Shown here piece by piece: positions 7,081 to 38,892 of a DNA stretch of 64,000 nt. The stretch lies in the NCBI RefSeq assembly GCF_003334305.1, contig NZ_QOWS01000007.1; one strand, written 5' to 3'. Every line of letters starts with the position of its first letter. The first letter of the stretch is position 1. Source of the DNA: Escherichia coli. Its GTDB lineage: Bacteria; Pseudomonadota; Gammaproteobacteria; Enterobacterales; Enterobacteriaceae. The position numbers and the translations under genes are program-made. The notes under the pieces were generated by a model. That model was not told the DNA's origin. It made no database searches and saw nothing but the letters and a program-made list of their open reading frames with translations.

Positions 7081-7090
7081 GGAAATCACC

Positions 7091-8038: not shown

Positions 8039-8054
8039 GGAGCACTGACGGAAT

Positions 8055-9285: not shown

Positions 9286-9296
9286 GGAGATGATGA

Positions 9297-9947
9297 ATGA
9301 CCGGTTCTATGATCGTAAATAATCTGGCGGGACTGATGATGCTGACATCGCTGTTTGTGATTAGCGTCAAAAGCTATCGCCTGTCATGCGGATTTTACGC
9401 CTGCCAGTCGCTGGTGCTGGTGTCTATTTTCGCCACTCTCTCGTGCCTGTTCGCCGCAGAGCAACTGCTGATCTGGTCCGCCAGCGCCTTTATCACCAAA
9501 GTGCTGCTGGTACCGTTAATCATGACTTACGCTGCACGAAATATTCCCCAGAACATCCCGGAAAAAGCGTTATTCGGTCCGGCAATGATGGCACTGCTCG
9601 CGGCGTTAATTGTCCTGCTTTGCGCATTTGTCGTTCAGCCCGTGAAGCTACCGATGGCTACCGGGCTGAAACCGGCGCTGGCGGTAGCGTTAGGTCATTT
9701 TCTGCTTGGCCTGCTGTGCATTGTCAGCCAGCGCAATATCCTGCGGCAAATTTTTGGTTACTGCCTGATGGAAAACGGCTCCCATCTGGTGCTGGCGCTT
9801 CTTGCCTGGCGAGCACCGGAACTGGTGGAAATAGGTATCGCTACCGACGCCATCTTCGCCGTCATTGTGATGGTGTTACTGGCAAGAAAAATATGGCGTA
9901 CCCACGGCACGCTGGACGTGAACAACTTGACCGCGCTGAAGGGATAA
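9297..9947 (+). CDS. hyfE: hydrogenase-4 component E, small membrane subunit
   Basis: 216-aa hydrophobic ORF at the expected position and length. Confidence 0.9.
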
Positions 9948-9951
9948 TGAG

Positions 9952-11532: not shown

Positions 11533-13237
11533 TTCATCGTCAAATCGTGGCGAAGCGATTCTCGCCGCCCTGAAAACGCAGTTCCCCGGCGCGGTGCTGG
11601 ATGAAGAGCGACAAACGCCTGAACAGGTCACCATTACGGTGAAAATCAATCTGCTGCCTGACGTTGTACATTATCTTTATTATCAACATGATGGCTGGCT
11701 TCCAGTCCTGTTTGGCAACGACGAGCGGACACTTAACGGTCATTACGCGGTTTATTATGCCCTTTCAATGGAAGGGGCCGAAAAATGCTGGATCGTGGTG
11801 AAGGCACTGGTCGATGCCGACAGTCGGGAGTTTCCGTCAGTCACACCGCGCGTCCCTGCCGCGGTCTGGGGCGAGCGAGAAATTCGCGATATGTACGGGC
11901 TGATTCCGGTTGGCCTGCCGGATCAGCGTCGCCTGGTGTTGCCCGATGACTGGCCGGAAGATATGCATCCGCTGCGCAAAGATGCGATGGATTATCGACT
12001 GCGCCCTGAACCGACGACAGATTCCGAAACGTATGCGTTTATCAATGAGGGCAACAGCGATGCGCGGGAGATCCCTGTCGGCCCGCTGCATATCACCTCC
12101 GATGAACCGGGTCACTTCCGCTTGTTTGTGGATGGCGAGCAAATTGTCGATGCTGATTACCGCCTGTTTTATGTCCATCGCGGCATGGAGAAACTGGCAG
12201 AAACGCGGATGGGCTACAACGAAGTGACCTTCTTATCGGACCGCGTGTGTGGGATTTGCGGTTTTGCCCACAGTGTGGCCTATACCAATTCGGTTGAAAA
12301 TGCACTGGGGATTGAGGTGCCGCAACGAGCACATACTATTCGCTCGATTCTGCTGGAAGTCGAACGGCTACACAGTCATTTGCTTAACCTTGGCCTCTCC
12401 TGCCATTTCGTTGGTTTTGATACCGGCTTTATGCAATTTTTCCGCGTGCGGGAAAAGTCGATGACGATGGCGGAATTGCTGATCGGGTCGCGTAAAACCT
12501 ACGGTCTGAATCTGATTGGTGGTGTTCGCCGCGATATTCTCAAAGAGCAACGTCTGCAAACGCTGAAACTGGTGCGCGAGATGCGCGCCGACGTGTCGGA
12601 GCTGGTAGAGATGCTGCTTGCCACGCCGAATATGGAACAACGCACTCAGGGCATTGGCATTCTCGACCGACAAATCGCCCGTGATTATAGCCCTGTAGGG
12701 CCGCTGATCCGCGGCAGTGGTTTTGCCCGTGATTTGCGCTTTGATCACCCCTACGCCGACTACGGCAATATTCCAAAAACACTGTTTACCTTTACCGGCG
12801 GCGATGTTTTCTCCCGCGTGATGGTCCGTGTCAAAGAGACGTTTGATTCGCTGGCAATGCTGGAATTTGCCCTCGACAACATGCCGGATACCCCACTGCT
12901 GACCGAAGGCTTTAGCTATAAACCTCACGCATTCGCGCTGGGCTTTGTTGAAGCGCCACGCGGTGAAGACGTGCACTGGAGCATGCTCGGTGATAACCAA
13001 AAATTGTTCCGCTGGCGCTGCCGTGCCGCCACCTACGCCAACTGGCCGGTGTTGCGTTACATGCTGCGCGGCAATACCGTTTCTGACGCACCGCTGATTA
13101 TCGGTAGCCTTGATCCCTGCTACTCCTGTACCGACCGTGTGACGCTGGTAGATGTGCGCAAGCGCCAGTCAAAAACCGTGCCGTATAAAGAGATCGAACG
13201 CTACGGCATTGATCGTAACCGTTCGCCGCTGAAGTAA
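11522..13237 (+). CDS. hyfG: hydrogenase-4 large (NiFe catalytic) subunit
   Basis: ORF 11477..13237; NiFe large-subunit N-terminal CGIC motif; precise start uncertain (GTG at 11522 or a downstream codon). Confidence 0.85.
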
Positions 13238-13246
13238 GGACAGAAG

Positions 13247-13786
13247 ATGCTGAAGTTACTGAAAACTATTATGCGCGCCGGAACCGCGACGGTGAAATAT
13301 CCCTTCGCGCCACTGGAGGTCAGCCCAGGCTTTCGCGGGAAACCGGACCTGATGCCCAGCCAATGTATTGCCTGCGGCGCCTGTGCTTGTCCGGCAAATG
13401 CGCTGACTATCCAGACCGACGACCAGCAAAATTCGCGCACCTGGCAGCTCTATCTGAGGCGTTGTATTTACTGCGGACGTTGTGAAGAAGTGTGCCCGAC
13501 CAGAGCCATCCAGCTTACCAATAACTTTGAACTGACCGTCACCAATAAAGCCGATCTCTATACCCGCGCGACGTTCCATCTACAACGTTGCAGCCGTTGC
13601 GAACGCCCGTTTGCCCCGCAAAAAACCGTCGCACTGGCTGCTGAATTGTTGGCACAGCAACAAAATGCGCCACAAAACCGCGAAATGTTGCGGGCGCAAG
13701 CGAGCGTCTGCCCGGAGTGCAAACAACGCGCGACGCTGATCAACGACGATACAGATGTACCGCTGGTGGCTAAGGAGCAGCTATGA
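13247..13786 (+). CDS. hyfH: hydrogenase-4 component H, 4Fe-4S ferredoxin-type subunit
   Basis: 179-aa ORF with CxxCxxCxxxCP motifs, preceded by an AAGGA RBS. Confidence 0.9.
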
Positions 13787-14541
13787 GTCCAGTGCTTACA
13801 CAACATGTCAGCCAGCCCATCACGCTGAACGAGCAAACGCAAAAGATGAAGCGGCATTTGCTACAGGATATCCGTCGCTCGGCTTACGTTTATCGCGTCG
13901 ATTGCGGCGGCTGCAACGCCTGTGAAATCGAAATTTTTGCTGCCATCACACCCGTATTCGACGCAGAACGTTTTGGCATTAAGGTTGTTTCATCACCGCG
14001 TCACGCCGATATTTTGTTATTTACTGGCGCAGTCACCCGGGCGATGCGTATGCCTGCACTTCGGGCGTATGAGTCTGCCCCCGATCATAAAATCTGTGTT
14101 TCCTACGGCGCGTGCGGTGTCGGCGGCGGTATTTTCCACGATCTCTACAGCGTCTGGGGCGGCAGCGACACCATTGTCCCCATTGATGTTTGGATCCCCG
14201 GCTGCCCGCCAACACCGGCCGCCACCATTCACGGTTTCGCCGTGGCGCTCGGTTTGCTGCAACAGAAGATTCACGCTGTGGATTATCGCGATCCCACCGG
14301 GGTGACTATGCAACCGCTGTGGCCGCAAATCCCGCCATCACAACGTATCGCCATTGAGCGAGAAGCGCGGCGGCTGGCGGGCTATCGTCAGGGGCGAGAA
14401 ATTTGCGATCGGCTCCTGCGCCATTTAAGCGACGATCCTACAGGAAATCGGGTTAACACCTGGTTGCGCGATGCCGACGATCCACGTCTCAATAGTATCG
14501 TTCAGCAACTCTTTCGCGTACTCCGGGGGTTACATGACTGA
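13783..14541 (+). CDS. hyfI: hydrogenase-4 small subunit (NuoB-like)
   Basis: 252-aa ORF overlapping the hyfH stop; NuoB-like cysteine motifs (CGGCNAC, GCPP). Confidence 0.9.
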
Positions 14542-14947
14542 AGAGTGCGGGGAAATTGTTTTCTGGACGCTGCGAAAAAAGTTTGTCGCCAGTAGCGACG
14601 AGATGCCGGAACACAGCTCTCAGGTAATGTATTACTCGCTGGCTATCGGTCATCACGTTGGCGTGATTGATTGTCTGAATGTCGCCTTCCGCTGCCCACT
14701 GACGGAATACGAAGATTGGCTTGCACTGGTCGAAGAGGAACAAGCCCGACGTAAGATGCTGGGGGTGATGACTTTTGGTGAGATTGTTATTGACGCCAGC
14801 CACACCGCCCTGTTGACCCGGGCATTCGCGCCACTGGCAGATGACGCGACGTCTGTGTGGCAGGCGCGTAGCATTCAATTCATTCATCTGTTGGATGAAA
14901 TTGTGCAGGAACCGGCCATCTATCTGATGGCCAGAAAAATTGCGTGA
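14534..14947 (+). CDS. hyfJ: hydrogenase-4 component J (HycH-like maturation factor)
   Basis: ORF 14471..14947; start set at [11 protein letters not shown] (137 aa), overlapping the hyfI end. Confidence 0.85.
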
Positions 14948-14976
14948 GAAGGATTTCTCATTAATAAGGACTGTTG

Positions 14977-16989
14977 ATGGCTATGTCAGACGAGGCGATG
15001 TTTGCCCCGCCACAAGGAATAACAATTGAAGCGGTAAACGGAATGCTCGCGGAGCGGTTAGCACAGAAACACGGTAAGGCGTCTTTATTACGCGCCTTCA
15101 TCCCGATGCCGCCGCCGTTCAGCCCGGTACAACTTATTGAACTGCATGTTCTCAAAAGCAACTTCTATTACCGCTACCATGATGATGGCAGCGATGTGAC
15201 GGCAACAACAGAGTATCAGGGCGAGATGGTCGATTATTCGCGTCACGCCGTCCTTCTCGGCAGTAGTGGAATGGCGGAGCTACGCTTTATTCGCACCCAC
15301 GGCAGCCGTTTTACTCCCCAGGATTGCACACTGTTTAACTGGCTGGCGCGGATAATCACCCCGGTTCTGCAATCATGGCTCAATGATGAAGAACAGCAGG
15401 TGGCGCTGCGTTTGCTGGAGAAAGATCGCGATCATCATCGGGTACTGGTTGATATTACTAATGCAGTGCTGTCACATCTTGATCTCGACGATCTGATCGC
15501 TGACGTCGCTCGTGAGATCCATCATTTTTTCGGTCTGGCTTCAGTCAGTATGGTACTGGGCGATCATCGAAAGAACGAGAAGTTTAGCCTGTGGTGCAGC
15601 GATCTTTCTGCCTCACATTGTGCGTGTCTGCCACGCAATATGCCTGGCGACAGTGTATTGCTGACACAAACGCTACAAACCCGACAACCGACCTTGACGC
15701 ACCGTGCAGACGATCTGTTTCTCTGGCAACGCGACCCGTTATTACTCTTACTTGCATCTAACGGCTGCGAATCTGTGCTCCTTATACCGCTTACCTTTGG
15801 CAACCATACACCGGGTGCATTGTTGCTGGCGCATACCTCTTCCACTCTCTTTAGTGAGGAAAACTGCCAGCTACTACAACACATAGCCGATCGCATCGCT
15901 ATTGCCGTTGGCAATGCCGATGCCTGGCGTAGCATGACCGATTTGCAGGAAAGTTTGCAGCAAGAAAACCACCAGCTTAGCGAGCAGCTCCTTTCGAATC
16001 TGGGCATCGGTGACATTATCTATCAAAGCCAGGCAATGGAAGACCTGCTCCAGCAGGTAGATATTGTGGCGAAGAGCGACAGTACGGTGTTGATTTGCGG
16101 TGAAACCGGAACCGGCAAAGAGGTGATCGCCAGAGCGATCCATCAACTTAGCCCGCGACGCGACAAGCCGCTGGTCAAAATCAACTGCGCTGCCATCCCC
16201 GCCAGTCTTCTGGAAAGTGAGTTATTCGGTCATGACAAAGGGGCGTTTACTGGTGCGATTAATACCCATCGTGGTCGTTTTGAAATTGCCGATGGCGGCA
16301 CGTTGTTTCTCGATGAAATTGGCGATCTGCCGTTAGAACTTCAGCCTAAACTGCTGCGCGTATTGCAGGAACGGGAGATTGAGCGTCTCGGCGGGAGTAG
16401 AACGATCCCGGTAAATGTCAGAGTCATTGCCGCCACCAACCGTGATTTGTGGCAAATGGTTGAAGATCGCCAGTTTCGCAGCGATCTCTTTTATCGCCTG
16501 AATGTCTTCCCACTGGAATTGCCGCCGCTGCGCGACCGTCCGGAAGATATCCCTCTTTTAGCAAAGCATTTCACGCAAAAAATGGCGCGCCATATGAATC
16601 GTTCAATTGACGCCATCCCGACCGAGGCGCTACGCCAGTTGATGTCGTGGGACTGGCCGGGCAACGTGCGCGAGCTGGAAAACGTGATTGAGCGAGCGGT
16701 ACTGCTGACTCGCGGTAACAGTCTGAATTTACATCTTAATGTCCGACAAAGCCGTTTACTGCCGACGCTAAATGAAGATTCAGCGCTTCGCAGTTCAATG
16801 GCGCAGTTGCTGCACCCGACGACGCCAGAGAATGACGAAGAAGAACGTCAGCGCATTGTTCAGGTATTGCGAGAAACCAATGGCATTGTTGCCGGGCCCC
16901 GTGGCGCGGCGACACGATTAGGGATGAAGCGCACCACGCTGCTGTCACGAATGCAGCGTCTGGGAATCTCGGTTCGCGAGGTGTTGTAA
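14977..16989 (+). CDS. hyfR: sigma-54-dependent transcriptional activator of the hyf operon (FhlA paralogue)
   Basis: 671-aa ORF with AAA+ sigma-54 activator motifs ([14 protein letters not shown]) and a C-terminal HTH; start at the second Met. Confidence 0.9.
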
Positions 16990-17010
16990 TCTGCTTTTGC
17001 AGGAGTATGC

Positions 17011-17859
17011 ATGAGAAACAAACTCTCTTTCGACTTGCAGTTGAGCGCCAGAAAAGCGGCAATCGCTGAACGGATTGCTGCCCATAAAATTGCCCGCAGT
17101 AAAGTGTCGGTCTTTTTAATGGCGATGTCCGCTGGCGTGTTTATGGCGATCGGATTTACTTTTTACCTTTCAGTTATCGCCGATGCCCCGTCTTCACAGG
17201 CATTAACCCATCTGGTGGGCGGCCTTTGCTTTACACTTGGCTTTATTTTGCTGGCGGTTTGCGGCACCAACCTGTTCACCTCGTCGGTAATGACGGTAAT
17301 GGCAAAAAGTCGGGGCGTTATTAGTTGGCGAACTTGGCTGATTAACGCACTTCTGGTGGCCTGCGGTAATCTGGCAGGTATTGCCTGTTTCAGTTTGTTA
17401 ATCTGGTTTTCCGGGCTGGTGATGAGTGAAAACGCGATGTGGGGAGTCGCGGTTTTACACTGCGCCGAGGGCAAAATGCATCATACATTTACTGAATCTG
17501 TCAGCCTCGGCATTATGTGCAATCTGATGGTTTGCCTGGCGCTGTGGATGAGTTATTGCGGGCGTTCGTTATGCGACAAAATCGTCGCCATGATTTTGCC
17601 CATCACCCTGTTTGTCGCCAGTGGCTTTGAGCACTATATCGCCAATTTGTTTGTGATTCCGTTCGCCATTGCCATTCGCCATTTCGCCCCTACCTCCTTC
17701 TGGCAACTGGCGCACAGTAGCGCAGACAATTTTCCGGCACTGACGGTCAGCCATTTTATTACCGCCAATCTGCTCCCGGTGATGCTGGGTAATATTATCG
17801 GCGGTGCAGTGCTGGTGAGTATTTGTTATCGGGCTATTTATTTACGTCAGGAATCCTGA
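17011..17859 (+). CDS. focB: formate channel, FNT family
   Basis: 282-aa polytopic membrane ORF immediately downstream of hyfR. Confidence 0.9.
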   Translation: MRNKLSFDLQLSARKAAIAERIAAHKIARSKVSVFLMAMSAGVFMAIGFTFYLSVIADAPSSQALTHLVGGLCFTLGFILLAVCGTNLFTSSVMTVMAKSRGVISWRTWLINALLVACGNLAGIACFSLLIWFSGLVMSENAMWGVAVLHCAEGKMHHTFTESVSLGIMCNLMVCLALWMSYCGRSLCDKIVAMILPITLFVASGFEHYIANLFVIPFAIAIRHFAPTSFWQLAHSSADNFPALTVSHFITANLLPVMLGNIIGGAVLVSICYRAIYLRQES

Positions 17860-17895
17860 AAAATCAGCCCGGCGAAACAGTTCGTCGGGCTGAAG
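17860..17895. terminator. bidirectional hairpin terminator between convergent focB and perM
   Basis: 12-bp stem (cagcccggcgaa/ttcgtcgggctg, one mismatch) flanked by an A-run and a T-rich tract. Confidence 0.45.
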
Positions 17896-17896
17896 A

Positions 17897-18958
17897 TTAT
17901 TCTTGCGCGATTTGCCCATCGGGCCAGGCGTGGATCACGGCTTTGATCAGCGTCGCCAATGGAATGGCGAAGAATACGCCCCAGAATCCCCACAAACCAC
18001 CGAAGATCACCACCGATAAAATAATCACCAGCGGATGCAGGTTAACCGCTTCGGAGAACAACACCGGTACTAGCAGGTTGCCGTCCAGCGCCTGAATAAT
18101 CAGATACACCGCGAAGCAGCTCCAGAATTCCGTGCCTGCGCCAAACTGGAATAGCGCCACGCCAACCACCGGAATGGTCACCACAAATGCGCCAATGTAC
18201 GGAATAAGAACCGAGAAGCCGACCAGCACCGCCAGCAGCAGCGAATAGTTCAGCCCAAAGAGCAAGAACCCCAGCCAGGTGGCGATCCCCACCACGATCA
18301 TCTCCAGCACTTTGCCGCGGATATAGTTGGTGATTTGTTGATTCATCTCCTTCCACACCTGTCCTGCCAGTCCACGGTTGCGCGGCAGCACCCGACGAAC
18401 GGCGTTCAGCATCTGCTCTTTGTCTTTCAGCAGGAAGAAGACCATCAATGGCACCAGCACCAGATAGACGGCAATGGTCAGCAAACCGACCAGCGAGGCG
18501 AGGGAAATTTTCACCACCGAATCGCCCATGGTCAGCATCCGACTGCGCATATTTTCGGCCATTGCATCAATAATGCCCGCGTCCATTAACGCCGGATAGC
18601 GACGCGGCAACGTGGCGGCAAAGTCAGAAAGCTTATTGAGCATCCCCGGCATATCGCGGATTAAGTAGATGCCCTGTTGCCAGGCGATAGGCAGTACCAC
18701 GAACGCCATCAGTAGCAATATACCGACAAAAACCACCAATACAATCGACGTCGCCCAGCGGCGGGAGCAGCCAATAGATTGCAGGCGCACGGTTGGCCAT
18801 TCCAGCAAATAGGCCAGCACAATAGCCACCAGCAACGGAGCAAGCAGGCCACTAAAGAAAAAGATAATGCCAAATCCGGCAACTAAAATAACCAGCAAGG
18901 CAATCGCTTCCGGGTCGCTAAAACGGCGGCGATACCATTGCATCAACATTTCGAGCAT
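17897..18958 (-). CDS. perM: AI-2E family permease
   Basis: 353-aa polytopic membrane ORF recognised as YfgO/PerM. Confidence 0.9.
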   Translation of the reverse strand: MLEMLMQWYRRRFSDPEAIALLVILVAGFGIIFFFSGLLAPLLVAIVLAYLLEWPTVRLQSIGCSRRWATSIVLVVFVGILLLMAFVVLPIAWQQGIYLIRDMPGMLNKLSDFAATLPRRYPALMDAGIIDAMAENMRSRMLTMGDSVVKISLASLVGLLTIAVYLVLVPLMVFFLLKDKEQMLNAVRRVLPRNRGLAGQVWKEMNQQITNYIRGKVLEMIVVGIATWLGFLLFGLNYSLLLAVLVGFSVLIPYIGAFVVTIPVVGVALFQFGAGTEFWSCFAVYLIIQALDGNLLVPVLFSEAVNLHPLVIILSVVIFGGLWGFWGVFFAIPLATLIKAVIHAWPDGQIAQE

Positions 18959-19170
18959 AAAAACCTTCCCTGAACCTCAAGAGCGGGATTGCGATCCGCA
19001 ATTGTATCGAAATGTCACAAAAAAGACTTCGCTTTTTATGACGGATTCAGGAAACTGAAAAGTCATTTGAGTGGGCTAATCTTCGCCGTTACACTCAAAG
19101 GCGGCGCGGTGGGAACGATATTTAACAGTATCGGTCAAATGACTATCTTCAGAAATACAGGATAGAGGTT

Positions 19171-20634
19171 ATGTTCAGGCAGTTGAAAAAAAACCTGGTT
19201 GCAACCCTCATTGCTGCTATGACCATTGGTCAGGTAGCCCCGGCGTTTGCCGACAGCGCAGACACCTTGCCGGATATGGGAACCTCCGCAGGAAGCACGC
19301 TTTCCATTGGTCAGGAAATGCAGATGGGCGACTATTATGTCCGCCAGCTACGCGGCAGCGCGCCGTTAATTAATGACCCGCTGTTAACGCAATATATTAA
19401 TTCGCTGGGGATGCGTCTGGTTTCGCATGCCAATTCGGTTAAGACACCGTTTCATTTTTTTCTGATCAACAACGACGAAATTAACGCCTTTGCTTTCTTT
19501 GGCGGCAACGTGGTGCTGCACTCTGCCCTGTTCCGTTATTCCGATAACGAAAGTCAACTGGCTTCAGTTATGGCGCACGAAATCTCCCACGTCACCCAAC
19601 GTCACCTGGCGCGAGCGATGGAAGATCAACAACGCAGCGCGCCGCTGACCTGGGTCGGCGCGTTAGGTTCTATTTTACTGGCGATGGCCAGTCCGCAGGC
19701 GGGGATGGCGGCGCTGACCGGTACACTGGCGGGAACACGTCAGGGGATGATCAGTTTCACCCAGCAAAATGAACAGGAAGCGGACCGCATTGGTATTCAG
19801 GTGCTGCAACGCTCGGGATTCGATCCGCAGGCGATGCCAACCTTCCTCGAAAAATTACTCGATCAGGCGCGTTACTCCTCGCGCCCGCCGGAAATTTTAT
19901 TGACTCACCCGTTGCCGGAAAGTCGTCTGGCAGATGCCCGCAACCGTGCTAATCAGATGCGACCGATGGTGGTGCAGTCGTCGGAAGATTTCTATCTGGC
20001 GAAAGCGCGCACACTGGGGATGTATAATTCCGGACGTAACCAGCTCACCAGTGATTTGCTGGATGAATGGGCGAAAGGAAACGTTCGTCAGCAACGAGCG
20101 GCGCAATATGGTCGTGCTTTACAGGCGATGGAAGCCAATAAATACGACGAGGCGCGTAAAACGCTGCAACCGTTACTGGCGGCAGAACCTGGCAACGCAT
20201 GGTATCTCGATCTGGCTACCGATATCGATCTTGGGCAAAACAAAGCCAATGAGGCAATCAATCGCCTGAAAAATGCCCGTGATTTGCGCACCAATCCGGT
20301 GTTGCAGCTCAACCTGGCGAACGCTTATCTACAAGGCGGTCAACCACAAGAAGCGGCCAATATTCTCAATCGCTACACTTTTAACAATAAAGATGACAGC
20401 AACGGCTGGGATTTACTGGCACAGGCGGAAGCCGCGCTAAATAACCGCGATCAGGAACTGGCTGCGCGAGCAGAAGGTTATGCGCTCGCCGGGCGACTCG
20501 ATCAGGCCATTTCGCTGTTGAGTAGCGCCAGTTCGCAGGTGAAATTAGGCAGCCTGCAACAAGCGCGTTACGATGCGCGCATCGACCAGTTGCGCCAGCT
20601 GCAGGAACGCTTTAAGCCTTATACCAAGATGTAA
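19171..20634 (+). CDS. bepA: periplasmic M48 metalloprotease/chaperone with TPR repeats (beta-barrel assembly-enhancing protease)
   Basis: 487-aa ORF with signal peptide and HEISH (HExxH) zinc motif. Confidence 0.92.
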
Positions 20635-20654
20635 TTCGCATTAAAGGAAGAACA

Positions 20655-21014
20655 ATGACCAAACAGGTAAAAATCTACCATAACCCACGCTGTTCAAAGA
20701 GCCGGGAAACGCTGAACCTGCTGAAAGAAAACGGCGTGGAGCCAGAAGTGGTGCTCTACCTTGAGACACCCGCCGATGCGGCAACGCTGCGCGATTTGCT
20801 GAAAATGCTGGGGATGAATAGCGCCCGTGAATTGATGCGCCAGAAAGAGGATCTTTATAAAGAACTGAACCTGGCTGACAGTTCGCTTAGCGAAGAGGCG
20901 CTGATTCAGGCAATGGTGGATAATCCGAAGCTAATGGAGCGCCCGATTGTGGTCGCGAATGGCAAAGCGCGGATTGGTCGTCCACCGGAGCAGGTACTGG
21001 AAATCGTGGGTTAA
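20655..21014 (+). CDS. yfgD: ArsC/Spx-family reductase-like protein
   Basis: 119-aa ORF with N-terminal catalytic Cys (YHNPRCSKSR). Confidence 0.85.
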   Translation: MTKQVKIYHNPRCSKSRETLNLLKENGVEPEVVLYLETPADAATLRDLLKMLGMNSARELMRQKEDLYKELNLADSSLSEEALIQAMVDNPKLMERPIVVANGKARIGRPPEQVLEIVG

Positions 21015-21043
21015 GATGTGCTCCATCGCTAGTTGAAGCACAT

Positions 21044-21138
21044 TGCCGGATGCGACGCTTGCCACGTCTTATCCGGCCTACGAATACTATGGATTAACTT
21101 CGCGTAGTTCGGATAAGGCGTTCGCGCCGCATCCGACA
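21044..21138. repeat. BIME: two inverted REP elements
   Basis: tgccggatgcgacgcttgccacgtcttatccggcctacg and its inverted partner cgcgtagttcggataaggcgttcgcgccgcatccgaca. Confidence 0.55.
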
Positions 21139-21151
21139 ATAAACACCTTAT

Positions 21152-21853
21152 CTACAACTTCAGAATTTCTTTCACAAACGGAATGGTCAGCTTACGTTGC
21201 GCGGTAATCGACGCACGATCCAACTGATCCAACGTCATAAATAGCGTGCGCATTTCTCTGTCGAGCCGCTTCAGCAAGAAACGCCCCACATCTTCCGGCA
21301 GTTCAAAACCACGCAAACGCGCGCGTAACTGTAGCGCCTGCAACTTATCTTCATCAGAAAGTGGCTGCAATTTGTAGATCTGCCCCCAGTCGAGTCGCGA
21401 CGCGAGATCCGGTAACCCCAGATTCAACTGCCGCGGTGGACGATCGCCGGTGATCAACAATCGTGTTTTGCCCGATTCCAGAATTCGATTGTAGAGATCG
21501 AAAATCGCCATCTCCCACAACTCATCGCCTGCAATACACTCAATGTTGTCGATACAGACCAGCGACAAATGCTCCATACCGTCGAGCACTTCCGGAACAA
21601 ACCAGGTGCGTTTATCCAGCGGGACATAGCCCACCGCATCGCCACGCTGCGACAATTCCGCGCAAGCCGCGTGCAGCAGATGGCTGCGCCCCGCGCCTTC
21701 GCGTGCCCAGAGATAGATGTAACCGCTATGTTCCTGACGCAGCACGTTTTGCAGCGCAGCCAGTAAAGAGGAGTTATCCCCCGGCCAGAAACTTGCAAAG
21801 GTTTCGTCGTCAGGAAGATAAAGTGGCAAAGAGAGCTGTGCCGGTGTGTTCAG
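21152..21853 (-). CDS. hda: DnaA-inactivating AAA+ protein Hda
   Basis: ORF 21152..21898; the recognised Hda N-terminus ([18 protein letters not shown]) begins at a CTG codon at 21853 (233 aa). Confidence 0.85.
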
Positions 21854-21947
21854 AGATACCTCAACCAGGATTTCACAAAATCGCGAGAAGTTTACCACAG
21901 AATCCCATGATGTTTGAACCGGGCAGCAACACTGCCCGGTCGGTACA

Positions 21948-23237
21948 TTATTTGTCTGTTATATCCGCGTCTTCTGCGTCCAGCACCACTTCTTCAGGGC
22001 GCAGCACACTAATCAGTTTGAAGATCAAACTTAAGCCGATACCGACGATGGTCGCCAGCGCCATACCTTTTAACTCCGCCGCGCCGATGTTTACCTTCGC
22101 GCCACTGACGCCGATGATCAAAATCACGGAAGTCAGGATCAGGTTCTGTGCTTTGTTGTAATCCACTTTCGATTCGATCAAAACACGAATACCGGAAGCA
22201 CCGATGACACCATAAAGCAGCAGCGAAACGCCGCCCATCACCGGCAATGGGATCATCTGGATAGCGGCAGCCAGTTTACCGACGCAGGAAAGCAGGATAG
22301 CGAAAATCGCCGCCCCGCCGATAACCCAGGTACTGTAAACACGGGTGATCGCCATCACGCCAATGTTTTCTCCGTAAGTGGTATTTGGCGTGGAGCCAAA
22401 GAAGCCGGAGATCACGGTCGACAGGCCGTTAGCAAACATCGAACGGTGCAGACCTGGATCGCGCAGCAGATCTTTTTTGACGATATTAGCCGTTACTACC
22501 AGGTGCCCTACGTGTTCGGCAATAACCACTAATGCCGCTGGCAGAATAGTCAGAATGGCAAACCACTCGAAGCGCGGCGTATAGAGGGTTGGCAGCGCAA
22601 ACCAGTGAGCATTAATAATCGGCGTGGTATCGACAATTCCCATTGCGAAAGAGAGCGCGTACCCCACCAGCACGCCAATTAAAATCGGGATAATTGCCAG
22701 GAAACCACGGAACAGCACGGAACCTAAAACCGTGACCGCCAGGGTGGTAATAGAGATGATGATGGTTTTGGAGTCTGGCGTTTGCCCTTCAGCCGGGAGT
22801 AAACCCGCCATACCGGCAGCTACGCCCGCCAGCTCCAGACCGATGACGGCAACGATTGCGCCCATTGCCGCAGGTGGAAACAGCACGTCCAGCCAGCCGG
22901 TCCCCGCTTTCTTCACGATAAAAGAAACCAGGCAGAACAGCACGCCGCACATAATAAAGCCGCCCAGCGCGACTTCATACCCCAACGGCAACAGTAACAA
23001 TACCGGTGAAATAAAGGCAAAGCTGGAACCAAGATAAGCCGGAATTTTCCCTTTACAGATGAAGAGATACAGCAGCGTTCCAATACCGTTAAATAACAGT
23101 ACAGTCGCCGGGTTAATATGAAATAAGACGGGCACCAGGACGGTTGCACCAAACATGGCGAACAAATGTTGCAAACTAAGCGGGATTGTCTGTAAAAGTG
23201 GCGGTCTTTCACTCACCCCGATAGCACGGCGCGTCAT
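21948..23237 (-). CDS. uraA: uracil:H+ symporter
   Basis: ORF 21948..23279; start trimmed to [16 protein letters not shown] (429 aa). Confidence 0.92.
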
Positions 23238-23279
23238 AGTATTATCCTCTGTATTATGTGTTATAGGCGCTTTACTCAA

Positions 23280-23312
23280 AAAAAAGCCGACTCTTAAAGT
23301 CGGCTTTAATTA
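23280..23312 (-). terminator. rho-independent terminator downstream of upp
   Basis: On the minus strand, hairpin aagccgacttta/agagtcggctt is followed by a T7 run. Confidence 0.6.
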
Positions 23313-23322
23313 TTTTTATTCT

Positions 23323-23949
23323 TTATTTCGTACCAAAGATTTTGTCACCGGCATCGCCGAGGCCCGGAATAATGTATCCGTGCTCGTTCAGTCCCTGGTC
23401 AATCGATGCGGTATACAGTTCGACGTCCGGGTGCGCTTTTTCCAGCGCAGCGATACCTTCTGGCGCAGCTACCAGCACCAGAACTTTGATGCTGCTGCAG
23501 CCCGCTTTTTTCAGCAGGTCGATGGTCGCGATAACGGAACCACCGGTTGCCAGCATTGGGTCAACGATCAGCGCCATACGCTCATCGATGTTAGAAACCA
23601 GTTTCTGGAAGTACGGTACCGGCTCCAGCGTTTCTTCATTACGGTACATACCGACAACGCTGATGCGCGCGCTCGGAACATTTTCCAGTACACCGTCCAT
23701 CATCCCCAGACCGGCACGCAGAATTGGCACAACGGTAATTTTCTTACCTTTGATCTGGTCGATTTCTACCGGGCCGTTCCAGCCTTCGATAGTTACTTTT
23801 TCCGTTTCGAGGTCGGCGGTCGCTTCGTAAGTCAGCAGGCTACCCACTTCGGAAGCGAGTTCGCGAAAGCGCTTGGTGCTGATATCTTGCTCACGCATCA
23901 GTCCCAGCTTGTGTTTGACGAGTGGGTGTTTGACTTCCACGATCTTCAT
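23323..23949 (-). CDS. upp: uracil phosphoribosyltransferase
   Basis: ORF 23323..23976; start trimmed to [16 protein letters not shown] (208 aa). Confidence 0.93.
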
Positions 23950-24194
23950 ACTCTTTCTCCTTTGAGGGGCAGCCACAAAAAAAATCGACGGATTATACCT
24001 CCTTTCTTCAAGGCGGCAATATTCTTTTCGTTGACTTTAGTCAAAATGATAACGGTTTGAGATAAAGTTATTTTATATTCAAATGGTTATGAAAGAAGAT
24101 TATTCCATCCGAAAACTAACCTTTGCCCTGGCACAAGTCTTCTTTCGCCGCGCGTCTGGGGAAAAGACGTGCAAAAAGGTTGTGTAAAGCAGTC

Positions 24195-24210
24195 TCGCAA
24201 ACGTTTGCTT
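24195..24210. promoter_or_regulatory. PurR operator upstream of purM
   Basis: tcgcaaacgtttgctt matches the PurR box consensus at 14/16, about 65 bp upstream of the purM start. Confidence 0.6.
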
Positions 24211-24255
24211 TCCCTGTTAGAATTGCGCCGAATTTTATTTTTCTACCGCAAGTAA

Positions 24256-25310
<1,055 letters not shown>

Positions 25311-25311
<1 letters not shown>

Positions 25312-25949
25312 TGAATATTGTGGTGCTTATTTCCGGCAACGGAAGTAATTTACAGGCAATTATTGACGCCTGTAAAACTAACAAAATTAAAGGCACCGTA
25401 CGGGCAGTTTTCAGCAATAAGGCCGACGCGTTCGGCCTTGAACGCGCCCGCCAGGCGGGTATTGCAACGCATACGCTCATCGCCAGCGCGTTTGACAGTC
25501 GTGAAGCCTATGACCGGGAGTTGATTCATGAAATCGACATGTACGCACCCGATGTGGTCGTGCTGGCTGGTTTTATGCGCATTCTCAGCCCGGCGTTTGT
25601 CTCCCACTATGCCGGGCGTTTGCTGAACATTCACCCTTCTCTGCTGCCGAAATATCCCGGATTACACACCCATCGTCAAGCGCTGGAAAATGGTGATGAA
25701 GAGCACGGTACATCGGTGCATTTCGTCACCGATGAACTGGACGGTGGCCCGGTTATTTTACAGGCGAAAGTCCCGGTATTTGCTGGTGATACGGAAGATG
25801 ACATCACCGCCCGCGTGCAAACCCAGGAACACGCTATTTATCCACTGGTGATTAGCTGGTTTGCCGATGGTCGTCTGAAAATGCACGAAAACGCCGCGTG
25901 GCTGGATGGTCAACGTCTGCCGCCGCAGGGCTACGCTGCCGACGAGTAA
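25311..25949 (+). CDS. purN: phosphoribosylglycinamide formyltransferase 1
   Basis: 212-aa ORF whose start overlaps the purM stop (ATAATG). Confidence 0.93.
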
Positions 25950-25964
25950 TGCCCCGTAGTTAAA

Positions 25965-25991
25965 GCGCCAGCTCTGCCGCTGGCGTTTTTC
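25965..25991 (+). terminator. rho-independent terminator after purMN
   Basis: Hairpin gcgccagc-tctgcc-gctggcg followed by TTTTT. Confidence 0.55.
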
Positions 25992-26119
25992 AATTCACCT
26001 GTAAATCGCAAGCTCCAGCAGTTTTTTTCCCCCTTTTCTGGCATAGTTGGACATCTGCCAATATTGCTCGCCATAATATCCAGGCAGTGTCCCGTGAATA
26101 AAACGGAGTAAAAGTGGTA

Positions 26120-29732
<3,613 letters not shown>

Positions 29733-29738
29733 TGCTTT

Positions 29739-29770
29739 GCGGGCCGACGAGAAATGTCGGCCCGCATTAT
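29739..29770 (+). terminator. hairpin terminator between convergent ppx and pdeF
   Basis: 10-bp GC-rich stem gcgggccgac/gtcggcccgc followed by attattc. Confidence 0.4.
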
Positions 29771-32014
29771 TCAGGCACTTTCGCGAATGGGTTCGATTTC
29801 ATTCAGCGTATCAATTAACGGTTGCGGCTTACCAATAAGATAACCCTGCATATAATCGATCCCCAAAGAGAGCACCGCCTCGCGGATCTCTTCGTTTTCA
29901 ACGTACTCTGCCACTACCCGCATTTTCTTCATTCGCGCCAGGTGGCAAATCGATGCCACTATCTGATAATCCAGACTATTTGACACAATATTGCGGATAA
30001 AACTGCCGTCAATTTTAAGCAGATCGGCATTCACATTTTTAAGCCGCGCATAGCTGGCGTAGCCGGTGCCGAAATCATCAATCGCAATCTGGCAGCCTAA
30101 TTCCTGAAGATGCTGCAAGGTGATTTGCGCCTGCTTAACATTGGTCAGAGCATTACTTTCGGTGACTTCAAAAATAAGTTGCCACGCTTCAATCTGATAT
30201 TTATCCAGCAACTGACTGACTTCAACAGGAAAACGAGCCTGACATACCGAGGTTGGAGACAGATTAATAGCAAAACGGTGAGCGGGCATCTTCGCTCTGT
30301 TTTCAGCCATAAATTGCAGCGTATGCTCAATGACCCACATGTCGATACTCGACGATAAACCAAATTCGTGCGCGACCGGCAAGAAGCTATCGGGGCCGAT
30401 CAGTTCATCATTCTCACCTTTCATGCGCAGAAGAATTTCATGGTAAACATCACCACGCATACCGGTAATCGGCTGGGCCATCAGGAAAAAATGGTTGTGT
30501 TCCAGCGCCTGCTGTAGTCGATTCATCATCGCGACTTTATCTTTCAATTCGCGTTGCAAATACATTGCCCCGCGACGCTGCATATTTTCCGGGGCGTTGG
30601 TCACGATGGAAAGTTCGGCGACCGTATTTAGCTCTCCCAGCAGCAGGTAGATATGATTCACTGGCGAGCGCACATAGCAGTAACTGACGCCAATCTGCGG
30701 TTGCATCGGCATGCCATCCCAAAAGAAACGAAATTGCTTGAGATGGCTATCCAGTGCGGTAATGCGCTCCTGGTGCGATTCTGTATTCAGCCGCAGCGCG
30801 AGATCGTTACCCGAAAGCTGATAAACATCTTCACCCGGTTCCAGCAAGGGTGACAGCCAGTGAGAAAGTTTTTGCTTGTATTGAATCCGCAGCATGATGC
30901 CATAGTTCTTAACCAGCATTTCCATGCCAGGGATGCGTAAATAACAAAGCGCAGACCAGGGGGCATCACGCAACGCGCGATTCAGGGCGCGAACATTTGG
31001 CAGATGAACCACCGGGTCCACATACGCAAGCCGCTGAATGCGTCTGACTACCGCTCGCTGACGAGTTGCCAGTACAGCCATATAATTGACAATAAAAGAG
31101 AATACCAGATAACTGGAGGAGGTTATGGTCAGCTGCGTGGTATAGCCAGGATAAATGGGAATGTAATTTTGATAGCTGTGGATGCTGATCATCAACACGA
31201 CCGCCCAGAGCAGCGAAATCAGCTTATAACCATAGCGCATCGCTCCCCACATCATCAGGGGCAGCAATAATGACAAGGTATAATTGGTGCTAAAAATTGT
31301 GCTTTTTTCATTTAACGGCATGCATAACAGCAACAATAAAGCACCTAATGCCAGTAGCCAGAGCGCGAACTCTTTTTTGGTGACTTTGGCATCAACCTGC
31401 TGTTTTAATTGCGAATAATAGCTACGTAAATAAAATGGATTTCGCACTACCCGAATGATGAAGTAGCACAGCGGGACACCGATCAGATTACCCACCAGTA
31501 AGGCCTGATAATTGATTAAAGTCCCGAGGTTAAAAGGCATGACACCGACCAGATTTTCTCTGCTCGCCAGCAATCCTACAAATGCAGCAAACTGGAAAAG
31601 TATCAGAAACAGCGTTGCAGGAAACACTATCTGCCAGAATATACGCTGGGAAATTAAACGGGTATCACCATGTGAAACGTTGTTACGCCGGGGAGTAAAG
31701 ACCCTGTAACCGCCCCAACAGAGAATGATAATGATAATAAAATTAGCCGTTAATGAGAGCGTTTCGTAAAAACCCAGCTCTGCATATTTGCGGACAAAAA
31801 TCCCTAAGGTGATCCCTGGCAATGCCGCCCAGCTGAAAAACATCATCATGCTGATCATCAGTGCCAAAGGCAGATAAAAGAGAAAAACCTCACCGGAAGA
31901 AATATGCGCGAAAGTATTAATGTGGGCGAAAATGGGCAAGATTAAAGAAGGCAGGAACAGCGGAAGCCCCCACCATTTATCACGTATTTTTATATAAGTT
32001 GCATTCAGTTTCAT
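29771..32014 (-). CDS. pdeF: cyclic-di-GMP phosphodiesterase with N-terminal membrane sensor domain and EAL domain
   Basis: 747-aa ORF: N-terminal polytopic region, C-terminal EAL-type motifs (QIAIDDFGTGYASYARLK). Recognised as YfgF. Confidence 0.9.
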   Translation of the reverse strand: MKLNATYIKIRDKWWGLPLFLPSLILPIFAHINTFAHISSGEVFLFYLPLALMISMMMFFSWAALPGITLGIFVRKYAELGFYETLSLTANFIIIIILCWGGYRVFTPRRNNVSHGDTRLISQRIFWQIVFPATLFLILFQFAAFVGLLASRENLVGVMPFNLGTLINYQALLVGNLIGVPLCYFIIRVVRNPFYLRSYYSQLKQQVDAKVTKKEFALWLLALGALLLLLCMPLNEKSTIFSTNYTLSLLLPLMMWGAMRYGYKLISLLWAVVLMISIHSYQNYIPIYPGYTTQLTITSSSYLVFSFIVNYMAVLATRQRAVVRRIQRLAYVDPVVHLPNVRALNRALRDAPWSALCYLRIPGMEMLVKNYGIMLRIQYKQKLSHWLSPLLEPGEDVYQLSGNDLALRLNTESHQERITALDSHLKQFRFFWDGMPMQPQIGVSYCYVRSPVNHIYLLLGELNTVAELSIVTNAPENMQRRGAMYLQRELKDKVAMMNRLQQALEHNHFFLMAQPITGMRGDVYHEILLRMKGENDELIGPDSFLPVAHEFGLSSSIDMWVIEHTLQFMAENRAKMPAHRFAINLSPTSVCQARFPVEVSQLLDKYQIEAWQLIFEVTESNALTNVKQAQITLQHLQELGCQIAIDDFGTGYASYARLKNVNADLLKIDGSFIRNIVSNSLDYQIVASICHLARMKKMRVVAEYVENEEIREAVLSLGIDYMQGYLIGKPQPLIDTLNEIEPIRESA

Positions 32015-32365
32015 AGATGCTCAGCAGAATCCCCCACATCCTGAAGGAGGTGTATTCAGACAGGCATCCCACCTGACTTCGAATGATGATTATTCATCAC
32101 TATAGAGAGCATTGATTCTAAGTGTCATATGAAAGTTCCAATTGATATATATCAAACAAAATAACCCTGATTAATGAATTATTACGTTTATCATGTTAAT
32201 TCATCATTATTACATCATCATTGTAAATAATTAAATTAACTTCCATAACATTAAAATATGTATCCACTGACGCTTTTTTACATAACGAAGAATTGACCAT
32301 TTTGTCCTGTTGTGCCTTAATGTAAGTACCGTCCACAGCGTGGGACATACTTCAAGGAACCTTTT

Positions 32366-32557
32366 GTGAGTCAGGCAACCAGTATGCGAAAACGACACCG
32401 ATTTAACAGTCGCATGACCCGTATCGTACTGCTCATCAGCTTTATCTTCTTCTTTGGCCGTTTTATCTACTCGTCCGTCGGTGCCTGGCAGCACCATCAG
32501 AGCAAAAAAGAAGCTCAGCAATCCACACTCTCCGTCGAATCACCGGTACAACGTTAG
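32366..32557 (+). CDS. yfgG: small protein YfgG
   Basis: 63-aa ORF with one hydrophobic helix, in an AT-rich region between divergent pdeF and yfgH. Confidence 0.7.
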   Translation: MSQATSMRKRHRFNSRMTRIVLLISFIFFFGRFIYSSVGAWQHHQSKKEAQQSTLSVESPVQR

Positions 32558-32867
32558 CGGTTACCTTCTCCACTTTCACAGAACCTAACGGCACTTCGCT
32601 GTCGGATGCTTTTGCTCTTTGGAATTATCAAAGCGGCAGATATTCTTTCATCTTAAATTTTACGTCTTTGTCCTGACTGAGGTTTATCCTGTTTGGCTGC
32701 GAAATAAATATAAAATTAATATATATGTTGTAATGATATATTTTTATAAATTATTCCCTGCGTGAATTTTAATAAATTTAATCTATCCCTTTATACGCAA
32801 TACATTTACTTTCCTCTTTTGATGATCTTAAATGTCTTATTTTTCGTAATGTGTATAACAAGGAATA

Positions 32868-33386
32868 GTGATGAAATTTAAAAAATGTCTTCTGCCTGTG
32901 GCAATGTTAGCGTCATTCACTCTGGCAGGATGCCAGTCAAATGCTGACGATCATGCCGCCGATGTTTATCAAACCGATCAACTGAATACCAAACAAGAAA
33001 CTAAAACCGTTAATATTATTTCCATTCTTCCCGCAAAAGTTGCCGTAGACAACTCCCAAAATAAACGGAACGCACAAGCCTTCGGCGCGCTTATTGGCGC
33101 AGTCGCTGGCGGTGTTATCGGCCACAACGTCGGTTCTGGCAGCAATTCCGGAACGACGGCAGGGGCAGTTGGCGGCGGAGCTGTAGGCGCGGCAGTGGGT
33201 TCTATGGTGAATGATAAAACCTTAGTGGAAGGTGTTTCTTTAACATATAAGGAAGGCACCAAAGTGTATACCTCTACCCAGGTGGGTAAAGAGTGCCAGT
33301 TTACGACAGGTTTAGCCGTTGTTATTACCACAACGTATAACGAAACGCGTATTCAGCCAAATACTAAATGTCCTGAAAAGAGCTAA
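32868..33386 (+). CDS. yfgH: outer-membrane lipoprotein with glycine-zipper region
   Basis: 172-aa ORF with lipobox TLAGC and a Gly-rich zipper (GALIGAVAGGVIGHNVG). Confidence 0.85.
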   Translation: MMKFKKCLLPVAMLASFTLAGCQSNADDHAADVYQTDQLNTKQETKTVNIISILPAKVAVDNSQNKRNAQAFGALIGAVAGGVIGHNVGSGSNSGTTAGAVGGGAVGAAVGSMVNDKTLVEGVSLTYKEGTKVYTSTQVGKECQFTTGLAVVITTTYNETRIQPNTKCPEKS

Positions 33387-33401
33387 TAATCAGGAGGAGT
33401 C

Positions 33402-33941
33402 ATGAAGAAAGTTTTTCTTTGCGCCATCTTGGCCTCCTTAAGCTATCCGGCTATCGCCTCATCATTGCAGGATCAACTCTCTGCTGTAGCAGAAGCTGAA
33501 CAGCAAGGTAAAAATGAAGAGCAAAGGCAGCATGACGAATGGGTCGCGGAGCGCAACAGGGAAATCCAGCAAGAGAAGCAACGTCGCGCAAATGCCCAGG
33601 CCGCCGCTAACAAAAGAGCGGCAACGGCAGCGGCAAATAAGAAAGCTCGTCAGGATAAACTGGACGCCGAAGCCTCTGCGGACAAAAAACGCGATCAAAG
33701 TTATGAAGATGAGCTACGCAGCTTAGAGATTCAGAAACAAAAACTGGCGCTGGCAAAAGAAGAAGCCCGCGTTAAGCGAGAAAACGAATTTATCGATCAG
33801 GAACTGAAGCACAAAGCTGCGCAAACCGATGTGGTGCAATCTGAAGCTGACGCCAACAGAAATATGACTGAAGGCGGTCGCGATCTGATGAAAAGCGTGG
33901 GCAAAGCAGAAGAGAACAAATCGGACAGCTGGTTTAATTAA
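33402..33941 (+). CDS. yfgI: secreted charged coiled-coil protein YfgI
   Basis: 179-aa ORF with signal peptide and a highly charged Lys/Glu/Ala-rich body; AGGAGG RBS. Confidence 0.85.
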   Translation: MKKVFLCAILASLSYPAIASSLQDQLSAVAEAEQQGKNEEQRQHDEWVAERNREIQQEKQRRANAQAAANKRAATAAANKKARQDKLDAEASADKKRDQSYEDELRSLEIQKQKLALAKEEARVKRENEFIDQELKHKAAQTDVVQSEADANRNMTEGGRDLMKSVGKAEENKSDSWFN

Positions 33942-33979
33942 TCGATGTTAGTAACTTCAAGCCTATGATTCTTGAAGAT

Positions 33980-34014
33980 AAAAAACCCTCTGTAGTAACA
34001 GAGGGTTTTGTTCA
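33980..34014. terminator. bidirectional rho-independent terminator between yfgI and guaA
   Basis: aaaaaccctctg-tagtaa-cagagggttttgtt: perfect stem flanked by an A-run and a T-run. Confidence 0.55.
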
Positions 34015-34035
34015 TTCATAGTGCAGGGATTAAAA

Positions 34036-35613
34036 TCATTCCCACTCAATGGTAGCTGGCGGCTTGCCGCTGATGTCATACACCACGCGGGAAATACCGT
34101 TCACTTCATTGATAATGCGGTTGGAAACGCGACCGAGGAAATCGTACGGCAGATGCGCCCAGTGTGCGGTCATAAAGTCGATGGTTTCGACAGCACGCAG
34201 AGAGACAACCCAGTCATACTTACGACCATCGCCCATTACGCCAACGGAACGTACCGGCAGGAACACAGTGAACGCCTGGCTGACTTTGTCGTACAGGTCC
34301 GCTTTACGCAGTTCTTCAATGAAGATGGCGTCAGCACGGCGCAGCAGGTCACAGTACTCTTTCTTCACTTCACCCAGCACACGAACGCCAAGGCCTGGTC
34401 CCGGGAACGGGTGACGGTACAGCATGTCGTACGGCAGGCCCAGCTCCAGACCAATCTTACGCACTTCGTCTTTGAACAGCTCTTTCAGCGGTTCAACCAG
34501 GCCCATCTTCATCTCTTTCGGCAGGCCGCCCACGTTGTGGTGAGATTTGATGACGTGTGCTTTACCGGTTGCAGAAGCCGCAGATTCGATAACGTCAGGG
34601 TAGATGGTGCCCTGCGCCAGCCACTTCACGTCTTCCAGTTTCAGCGCTTCTTCATCGAATACTTCAACGAAAACGCGCCCGATGATTTTACGTTTTGCTT
34701 CCGGATCGTTTTCGCCAGCCAGCGCTGACAGGAAGCGATCTTCTGCCGGTACGTGAACAATGTTAAGACCAAAGTGATCGCCAAACATATCCAGAACCTG
34801 CTCTGCTTCGTTGAGACGCAGCAGGCCGTTGTCGACGAATACGCAAGTCAGGTTTTTACCGATAGCGCGGTGCAGCAGCATTGCGGTTACGGAGGAATCC
34901 ACACCACCAGAGAGGCCGAGGATGACTTTATCGTCGCCTACCTGCTCGCGGATGCGAGCTACAGCATCGTCGATAATTTTCGCTGGCGTCCACAGGGCTT
35001 CACACTGGCAGATATCACGCACAAAACGCTCCAGCATGCGCATACCCTGGCGGGTGTGAGTCACTTCCGGGTGGAACTGTACGCCATAGAAGCGTTTTTC
35101 TTCGTTAGCCATAATGGCAAACGGGCAGCTTTCGGTGCTGGCTACGGTGACGAAGTCGGACGGGATAGCGGTAACTTTATCGCCGTGGCTCATCCAGACA
35201 TCGAGCAGCGGTTTACCGTCTGCGGTCAGCGCATCTTCGATACCGCGAACCAGTGCGCTGTCGTTTACGACTTCAACCTGCGCGTAGCCAAATTCACGTT
35301 CGTTAGAGGCTTCAACGTGACCGCCCAACTGCATTGCCATGGTCTGCATGCCATAGCAAACGCCGAATACCGGTACGCCTGCTTCAAAGACATACTGCGG
35401 CGCACGCGGGCTGTTTTCTTCGGTGGTGCTTTCCGGGCCGCCGGAAAGAATAATGCCGCTTGGATTGAAGTCACGAATTTGTGCTTCTGTCACATCCCAC
35501 GCCCACAGTTCGCAGTAAACACCCAGCTCACGCACGCGGCGCGCAACCAGTTGAGTGTACTGAGAACCGAAGTCCAGAATGAGGATGCGATGCTTATGAA
35601 TGTTTTCCGTCAT
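34036..35613 (-). CDS. guaA: GMP synthase (glutamine-hydrolysing)
   Basis: 525-aa ORF recognised as GuaA ([22 protein letters not shown]...). Confidence 0.95.
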
Positions 35614-35681
35614 TGACGCTTATTCCGAGGCAAGTGAAACAGATAATATAAATCGCCCGACATGAAGTCGGGCGAAGAGAA

Positions 35682-37148
35682 TCAGGAGCCCAGACGGTAG
35701 TTCGGGGACTCTTTAGTAATGGTCACGTCGTGAACGTGGCTTTCCTGAATGCCCGCACCGCTGATACGTACAAACTCCGCTTTAGTACGCAGTTCGTCGA
35801 TAGTACCACAGCCGGTCAGACCCATACAGGAGCGCAGGCCGCCCATCTGCTGGTGAATGATCTCTTTCAGGCGACCTTTATAAGCTACGCGACCTTCGAT
35901 ACCTTCCGGCACCAGTTTGTCGGCAGCGTTATCGCTCTGGAAATAACGGTCAGAGGAACCTTTGGACATCGCGCCCAGGGAACCCATACCACGGTAAGAT
36001 TTGTAAGAACGGCCCTGGTAGAGTTCGATTTCACCCGGAGATTCTTCAGTACCCGCCAGCATGGAACCTACCATCACCGCGCTTGCGCCAGCGGCGATAG
36101 CTTTGGCGATGTCGCCGGAGAAGCGAATACCACCATCTGCGATAACCGGAATACCGGTGCCTTCCAGGGCTTCAACTGCGTCAGCAACGGCAGTGATCTG
36201 CGGAACACCTACGCCAGTAACGATACGAGTCGTACAGATAGAACCAGGGCCGATACCGACTTTAACCGCGCTGCAACCAGCTTCTGCCAAAGCGCGTGCA
36301 CCTGCAGCTGTTGCCACGTTGCCGCCGATGATTTGCAGATCCGGATATTTAGCACGGGTTTCACGGATACGCTGCAAAACGCCTTCTGAGTGACCGTGGG
36401 AGGAGTCGATCAGCAGAACGTCAACGCCAGCGGCAACCAGCGCGTCAACACGCTCTTCGTTACCCGCACCTGCGCCAACTGCAGCACCAACACGCAGACG
36501 GCCTTGCTCGTCTTTACAGGCGTTCGGTTTACGTTCCGCTTTCTGGAAGTCTTTCACGGTGATCATGCCGATCAGGTGGAATTCGTCATCAACCACCAGC
36601 GCTTTTTCAACGCGTTTTTCGTGCATTTTTGCCAGCACCACTTCACGGGCTTCACCTTCACGCACGGTGACCAGACGCTCTTTCGGCGTCATGTAAACGC
36701 TAACCGGCTGGTTCAGGTCGGTAACAAAACGCACGTCACGACCGGTGATAATACCCACCAGTTCGTTTTCTTCGGTAACGACCGGATAGCCCGCAAAACC
36801 GTTACGCTCAGTCAGTTCTTTCACTTCGCGCAGCGTCGTGGTTGGCAGAACAGTCTGCGGATCAGTCACCACACCAGATTCGTGTTTTTTCACACGGCGA
36901 ACTTCTTCTGCCTGGCGTTCAATGGACATGTTTTTGTGGATAAAGCCGATACCGCCTTCCTGAGCCAGAGCAATAGCCAGGCGCGCTTCCGTTACGGTAT
37001 CCATTGCTGCGGAAAGCATAGGGATATTCAGACGAATAGTTTTCGTCAGCTGGGTGCTGAGGTCAGCAGTATTCGGCAGAACGGTAGAATGAGCAGGAAC
37101 GAGGAGAACGTCGTCAAACGTCAGAGCTTCTTTAGCGATACGTAGCAT
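35682..37148 (-). CDS. guaB: IMP dehydrogenase
   Basis: ORF 35682..37217; start trimmed to [18 protein letters not shown] (488 aa). Confidence 0.93.

Positions 37149-38892
<1,744 letters not shown>

Follow-up and report, generated by a model that had tools for sequence, protein, structure and literature searches.

The window examined here, a 64,000-nt stretch of the E. coli chromosome, carries the gene order uraA-upp <> purM-purN-ppk. The two sides of this arrangement are separated by a 324-bp spacer (23950..24273) between upp and purM. Of 5426 complete E. coli genomes, 5425 contain this spacer, many of them at 100% identity. To the right of the spacer, purN shares 1 nt with the stop codon of purM, which makes the pair a single operon, and ppk follows as the next gene on the plus strand. 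Where RefSeq annotates an identical gene and spacer, it agrees with our purM call. A mechanical list of open reading frames begins purM at an in-frame GTG at 24259 (350 aa) rather than at the annotated 24274 (345 aa); the annotated start is supported by a conserved GTGGGGA sequence that sits just 5' of it. Coordinates of these and all other features discussed below are collected in the table.

Within the spacer lies a 16-bp sequence, TCGCAAACGTTTGCTT, that has the hallmarks of a PUR box. It matches the palindromic PurR consensus ACGCAAACGTTTGCGT at 14 of 16 positions, as the original prediction had counted, with mismatches at positions 1 and 15, and it shows the 16-bp two-fold symmetry typical of these sites (ACGCAAACGTTTGCGT / aNGNAAACGTTTNCNT). 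Against the classical consensus CGCAAACGTTTNCNT, which Liu et al. 2011 (PMC3266220) quote, it has no mismatch in 15 positions. The inner 12 bp of the site form a perfect palindrome; the window contains this sequence a single time, whereas dinucleotide shuffles predict 0.05 occurrences. The center of this palindrome is a CpG step (C24202 and G24203) with AA and TT on either side, in the context AAACGTTT at 24199..24206. The location is likewise that of a nucleotide-metabolism promoter: as predicted, the site is upstream of purM and purN, both on the plus strand, with its end 64 nt from the purM GTG.

Table. Features of the purM locus and of related or neighboring elements in the window (positions count from the first nucleotide of the window).
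Feature	Position	Strand	Remarks
uraA	21948..23237	-	annotated coordinates; left of the spacer
upp	23323..23949	-	left of the spacer
upp promoter	23976..24019	-	-35 TTGCCG; -10 TATAAT at 23997..23992, then GATTTTTTTTG
FNR site of the upp promoter region, TTGACTTTAGTCAA	24031..24044		~160 nt left of the PurR box, within the upp-purM spacer
PurR operator (PUR box) of the purMN promoter, TCGCAAACGTTTGCTT	24195..24210	.	sequence read directly; consensus match, PWM, published motif, conservation
Putative weak -35 hexamer TCGCAA	24195..24200	+	3/6 to TTGACA; placed by geometry; 17-nt spacer to the -10
Perfect 12-bp palindrome core, GCAAACGTTTGC	24197..24208	.	central CpG at 24202-24203
Putative extended -10 TGtTAGAAT of the purM promoter	24215..24223	+	invariant in 34 Enterobacterales
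Predicted purM transcription start	24230..24231	+	from the -10 position; operator center at ~-28
Ribosome-binding region GTGGGGA of purM	24260..24266	+	conserved at 0.91-1.00 in 34 species
purM, phosphoribosylformylglycinamidine cyclo-ligase	24274..25311	+	GTG start; 345 aa; TIGR00878, 514.9 bits
purN, GAR formyltransferase	25311..25949	+	TIGR00639, 281.7 bits
purC PurR box, ACGCACACGTTTGCGT	1016..1031	+	identical to the purC motif of Cho et al. 2011
yfgO/yfgC PurR ChIP-chip motif, CCGGAAGCGATTGCCT	18898..18913	-	published motif (Cho et al. 2011)
guaBA PurR motif, GCGTAACCGATTGCAT	37202..37217	+	published motif; guaB-xseA spacer
PurR-like 16-mer, ACGGCAACGATTGCGC	22846..22861	+	18.1 bits, above the purM operator; inside the uraA coding sequence (peptide GAIVAV)
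Weaker PurR-like 16-mer, ACGCGCGCGTTTGCGT	21311..21326	-	13.4 bits; 3 mismatches to consensus; inside the hda coding sequence
sroE sRNA	43672..43763	-	Rfam gathering-threshold match, 114.6 bits
ryfA sRNA	56606..56910	+	Rfam gathering-threshold match, 317.9 bits

Published experiments identify this sequence as a site of PurR action. In the ChIP-chip study of Cho et al. 2011 (PMC3159470, Table 1), the purM-purN peak carries exactly this 16-mer (MG1655 coordinates 2,619,140-2,619,155), with a log2 enrichment of 2.08 in the presence of adenine versus 0.98 in its absence. The same study groups purMN with the IMP-pathway units that are repressed by PurR-hypoxanthine, and it describes PurR sites as usually lying between the -35 and -10 elements and acting on initiation. 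Liu et al. 2011 (PMC3266220) identify the same site as the sequence that PurR binds at purM; when they removed AAACGTTTGCTT from an upp-purMN spacer carried in multicopy, the phenotype that they ascribe to PurR titration became weaker. The predicted identity of the site as a PurR operator thus agrees with both papers. According to secondary sources, He et al. 1990 and Meng et al. 1990 demonstrated binding in vitro and a repression of purMN that depends on purR; the former is reportedly a DNase footprint study.

How unusual is such a match by sequence alone? Scoring with a PurR matrix had been suggested alongside the original prediction, and we built a leave-one-out position weight matrix (PWM) from 27 published PurR motifs (Cho et al. 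2011, Table 1), with the purM site excluded. The purM site scored 17.3 bits, third in the window and inside the 7.4-25.2 bit range of the 27 other published sites. Sites of at least 17.3 bits are expected 0.09 times per 64 kb on both strands under an exact i.i.d. model, 0.24 times under a first-order Markov model, and 4.4e-4 times in the 324-bp upp-purM spacer. For the window as a whole, the PWM score is only moderately unusual and is not decisive. The site is nonetheless well beyond chance, because it directly precedes a purine gene and is conserved across species. The spacer holds no second PurR-like site: the next best PWM score there is 2 bits, so a PurR footprint elsewhere in the purM promoter, the observation that would have counted against the prediction, has no candidate sequence.

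To follow the site through evolution, we collected purM loci from 80 gammaproteobacterial species, one genome each, spanning Enterobacterales, Pasteurellales, Vibrionales, Aeromonadales, Alteromonadales, and others. A box was called when the leave-one-out PWM gave at least 13 bits no more than 400 nt 5' of purM. By this measure 65 of the 80 species have a PurR box at the orthologous position, compared with 4 of 80 in a control of ~2.5 kb of purM coding and downstream DNA from the same loci. The distance from box to start codon is nearly constant, at 44-85 nt in most species. The 15 loci in which no box was called 5' of purM come from Alteromonadales, Shewanella-type loci, two Orbaceae, and a few others including one Pasteurellaceae.

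Alignment of 34 Enterobacterales purM promoters resolved this conservation to individual nucleotides. The only conserved islands are the box, a CTGnTAGAAT element, the ribosome-binding site, and the GTG start; upstream of 24194 these promoters show no conservation. Within the box, columns 24197..24203 and 24205..24208 are invariant, the two bases of the central CpG among them, and columns 24194..24196 are conserved at 0.91-0.97. A variable 3-nt gap separates the box from CTGnTAGAAT at 24214..24223, in which C24214, T24215, G24216, and TAGAAT at 24218..24223 are all invariant. Within E. coli, the 45-nt segment comprising box and -10 is the same in 5364 of 5426 genomes, whereas only 1999 reach 99% identity or more over the whole upp-purM spacer.

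These conserved islands suggest how the purM promoter is built. A sigma-70 consensus scan of 23900..24350 called the upp promoter (minus strand) alone and no purM promoter, since the -35 of the latter is weak, and we placed the purM promoter by cross-species conservation. In that placement TGtTAGAAT would serve as an extended -10, and the operator sits 4 nt 5' of it. The sole candidate for a -35 element is TCGCAA, which falls in the left half of the operator. With transcription predicted to start at about 24230/24231, the operator would span about -36 to -21 and would overlap the -35 region. Both the predicted start and the position of the operator relative to it agree with Liu et al. 2011 (PMC3266220).

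The operator shares its spacer and its window with other regulatory features. Liu et al. 2011 (PMC3266220) describe TTGACTTTAGTCAA, to its left, as the site for FNR in the promoter region of upp. Farther off in the window are Rfam matches to two small RNAs, sroE and ryfA. The upp promoter leads into GATTTTTTTTG, the T8 initially transcribed region that serves UTP-sensitive reiterative transcription.

The purM operator is one of several PurR sites in this stretch of chromosome. The original prediction counted two PurR-regulated units, at purC and purM; both sites are real, but the count was low, and the window holds four published PurR-bound regions: purC, yfgO/bepA, purMN, and guaBA. Between bamC and purC, the purC box precedes the purC ATG (862, minus strand) by 154 nt. 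A GC-rich, REP-like palindromic sequence occupies 905..960, between this box and purC. The guaBA motif is 54 nt upstream of the guaB ATG (37148, minus strand) and makes guaBA the third classical PurR-regulated unit in the window. We took the guaBA context from the window sequence itself, as the collinear annotated record is divergent there. That record departs from the window past ~33 kb, with IS100 and other insertions. According to its annotation, the yfgO/yfgC motif is outside the yfgO-bepA spacer, within the first ~60 nt of the yfgO (perM) coding sequence. Of the 35 regions that Cho et al. 2011 detected by PurR ChIP-chip, four lie in a span of 36.2 kb (1016..37217), about 0.8% of the genome; this density mirrors the fact, already known, that purC, purMN, and guaBA cluster near 55-56 min.

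Two further PurR-like 16-mers lie inside coding sequences. The one in uraA outscores the purM operator and could in principle have been a further operator or a partner in DNA looping, but we rejected both roles: the ChIP list does not include it, and across most of 21 species it has eroded at synonymous positions. It therefore appears to be a chance match in coding sequence, and a false positive that scores above a genuine operator is a caution for calls made by PWM only. The weaker 16-mer, in hda, is probably a chance match as well, because ~0.9 such sites are expected per window at 13.4 bits.

The uraA example bears directly on whether the purM site could itself be a chance palindrome in a spacer of mixed AT/GC content, with no regulatory role. 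The whole-window expectation of 0.09-0.24 sites at this score leaves some room for accidents, and a comparable 18.1-bit match does look like one. Against such an origin stand the expectation of 4.4e-4 for the spacer itself, the conservation of the box in 65 of 80 species while its flanks are not conserved, and the published evidence of PurR occupancy in vivo and of an effect when the site is deleted. Coincidence thus has a negligible probability. An origin at the RNA level, with the inverted repeat working as a hairpin, terminator, or attenuator and not as protein-binding DNA, seems to us just as improbable. The repeat is indeed followed by a short T-rich stretch (TTTCCC), but its arms abut without a loop, so that a stem could have at most 4 bp. 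The RNA fold of 24180..24230 has a z of -1.12, with 33 of 200 shuffles folding equally well; no terminator-like site was found in 23900..24350, and an Rfam sweep gave no match near purM. Moreover, the repeat lies upstream of the predicted transcription start, and what is conserved at the repeat among the 34 Enterobacterales is its sequence.

A different protein is a somewhat more serious contender, though still a very unlikely one. The site could in principle be the main operator of another LacI/GalR-family regulator, such as GalR/GalS, RbsR, or CytR, with PurR secondary or irrelevant. A central CG within an AAnCGnTT-like core is common to LacI-family operators, and GalR has been reported on operators that overlap PurR sites at purR. 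At purM, however, the evidence points to PurR. The GalR ChIP-chip table, with its 15 regions, contains no purM peak, and the PurR ChIP-chip peak at purM is saturating. The flanks GCAAAC/GTTTGC are of the PurR type and not of the GalR type (GTG.AA.CG.TT.CAC), and the genes downstream are those of purine biosynthesis. We hold it to be very nearly certain that the site is the purMN operator for the LacI-family purine repressor PurR, which would occlude the weak -35 of an extended -10 promoter.

Comparison with characterized operators places the site within the PurR family. Its closest counterpart is the E. coli K-12 purMN operator (RegulonDB/EcoCyc; Cho et al. 2011), where the 16-mer is identical, its neighboring genes are the same, and 64 nt likewise separate it from the purM GTG; the two are one site in different strains. 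On a larger scale the strains differ, with 23,346 bp between the purC and purM boxes in MG1655 versus 23,179 bp here, which implies ~167 bp of indels between the boxes relative to K-12. The xanP motif TGGCAAACGTTTGCTT (Cho et al. 2011) agrees with the purM site in 14 of 16 bases, the non-consensus T at 1 and at 15 among them, and its leave-one-out score is equal (17.32 bits), but unlike the purM site it serves a xanthine permease gene. The operators of purB and purR are bound by the same protein and belong to the same motif family. They differ in lying downstream of the transcription start, in transcribed or coding sequence, where PurR acts as a roadblock to elongation (Cho et al. 2011), whereas at purM the site falls in the -35/spacer region and would block initiation.

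The purF operator offers a structural reference for PurR binding. Its sequence, ACGCAAACGTTTTCTT (on its own strand), is reportedly the one that Schumacher and colleagues used in 1994 for crystal structures of the PurR-hypoxanthine-DNA complex. Both it and the purM site are pseudo-palindromes of 16 bp that contain a GCAAAC half-site, have a CpG at the center, and overlap the promoter, an arrangement for repression at initiation. The two differ in symmetry and in their outer positions. The 12-bp core of the purM site is fully symmetric, its right half reading GTTTGC where purF has GTTTTC, and the purM site has non-consensus bases at outer positions 1 (T) and 15 (T).

Repression at purMN operates, most likely, by promoter occlusion. 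Hypoxanthine or guanine would load the PurR dimer as corepressor and enable it to bind the 16-bp two-fold symmetric site, each monomer taking one GCAAAC half-site. At the central CpG, the hinge helices of the repressor would then insert into the minor groove and kink the DNA; in the structures attributed to Schumacher and colleagues (1994), the hinge helices and Leu54 are said to intercalate at this CpG step. Since the weak -35 lies inside the operator, bound PurR would occlude RNA polymerase, and initiation of purM-purN would be blocked when purines are plentiful.

For the purine regulon itself, the sequence at 24195..24210 is the already known purMN PurR operator and brings nothing new. It serves chiefly as a positive control, a textbook operator that was recognized from raw sequence without tools. 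The modest additions are the finding that across Enterobacterales no promoter elements other than the box and the putative extended -10 are conserved, the count of four published PurR-bound regions in the window, and the false positive in uraA. The departures of the operator from consensus, T at position 1 and a pyrimidine at position 15, raise a more speculative point. T at position 1 is kept in 97% of the 34 Enterobacterales and may persist because the left half-site may double as the -35 hexamer TCGCAA. That these departures have been selected, and are not the product of drift, strikes us as possible but doubtful. If true, promoter strength and repressor affinity would depend on the same bases, and purMN would be held at an intermediate operator strength throughout Enterobacterales.
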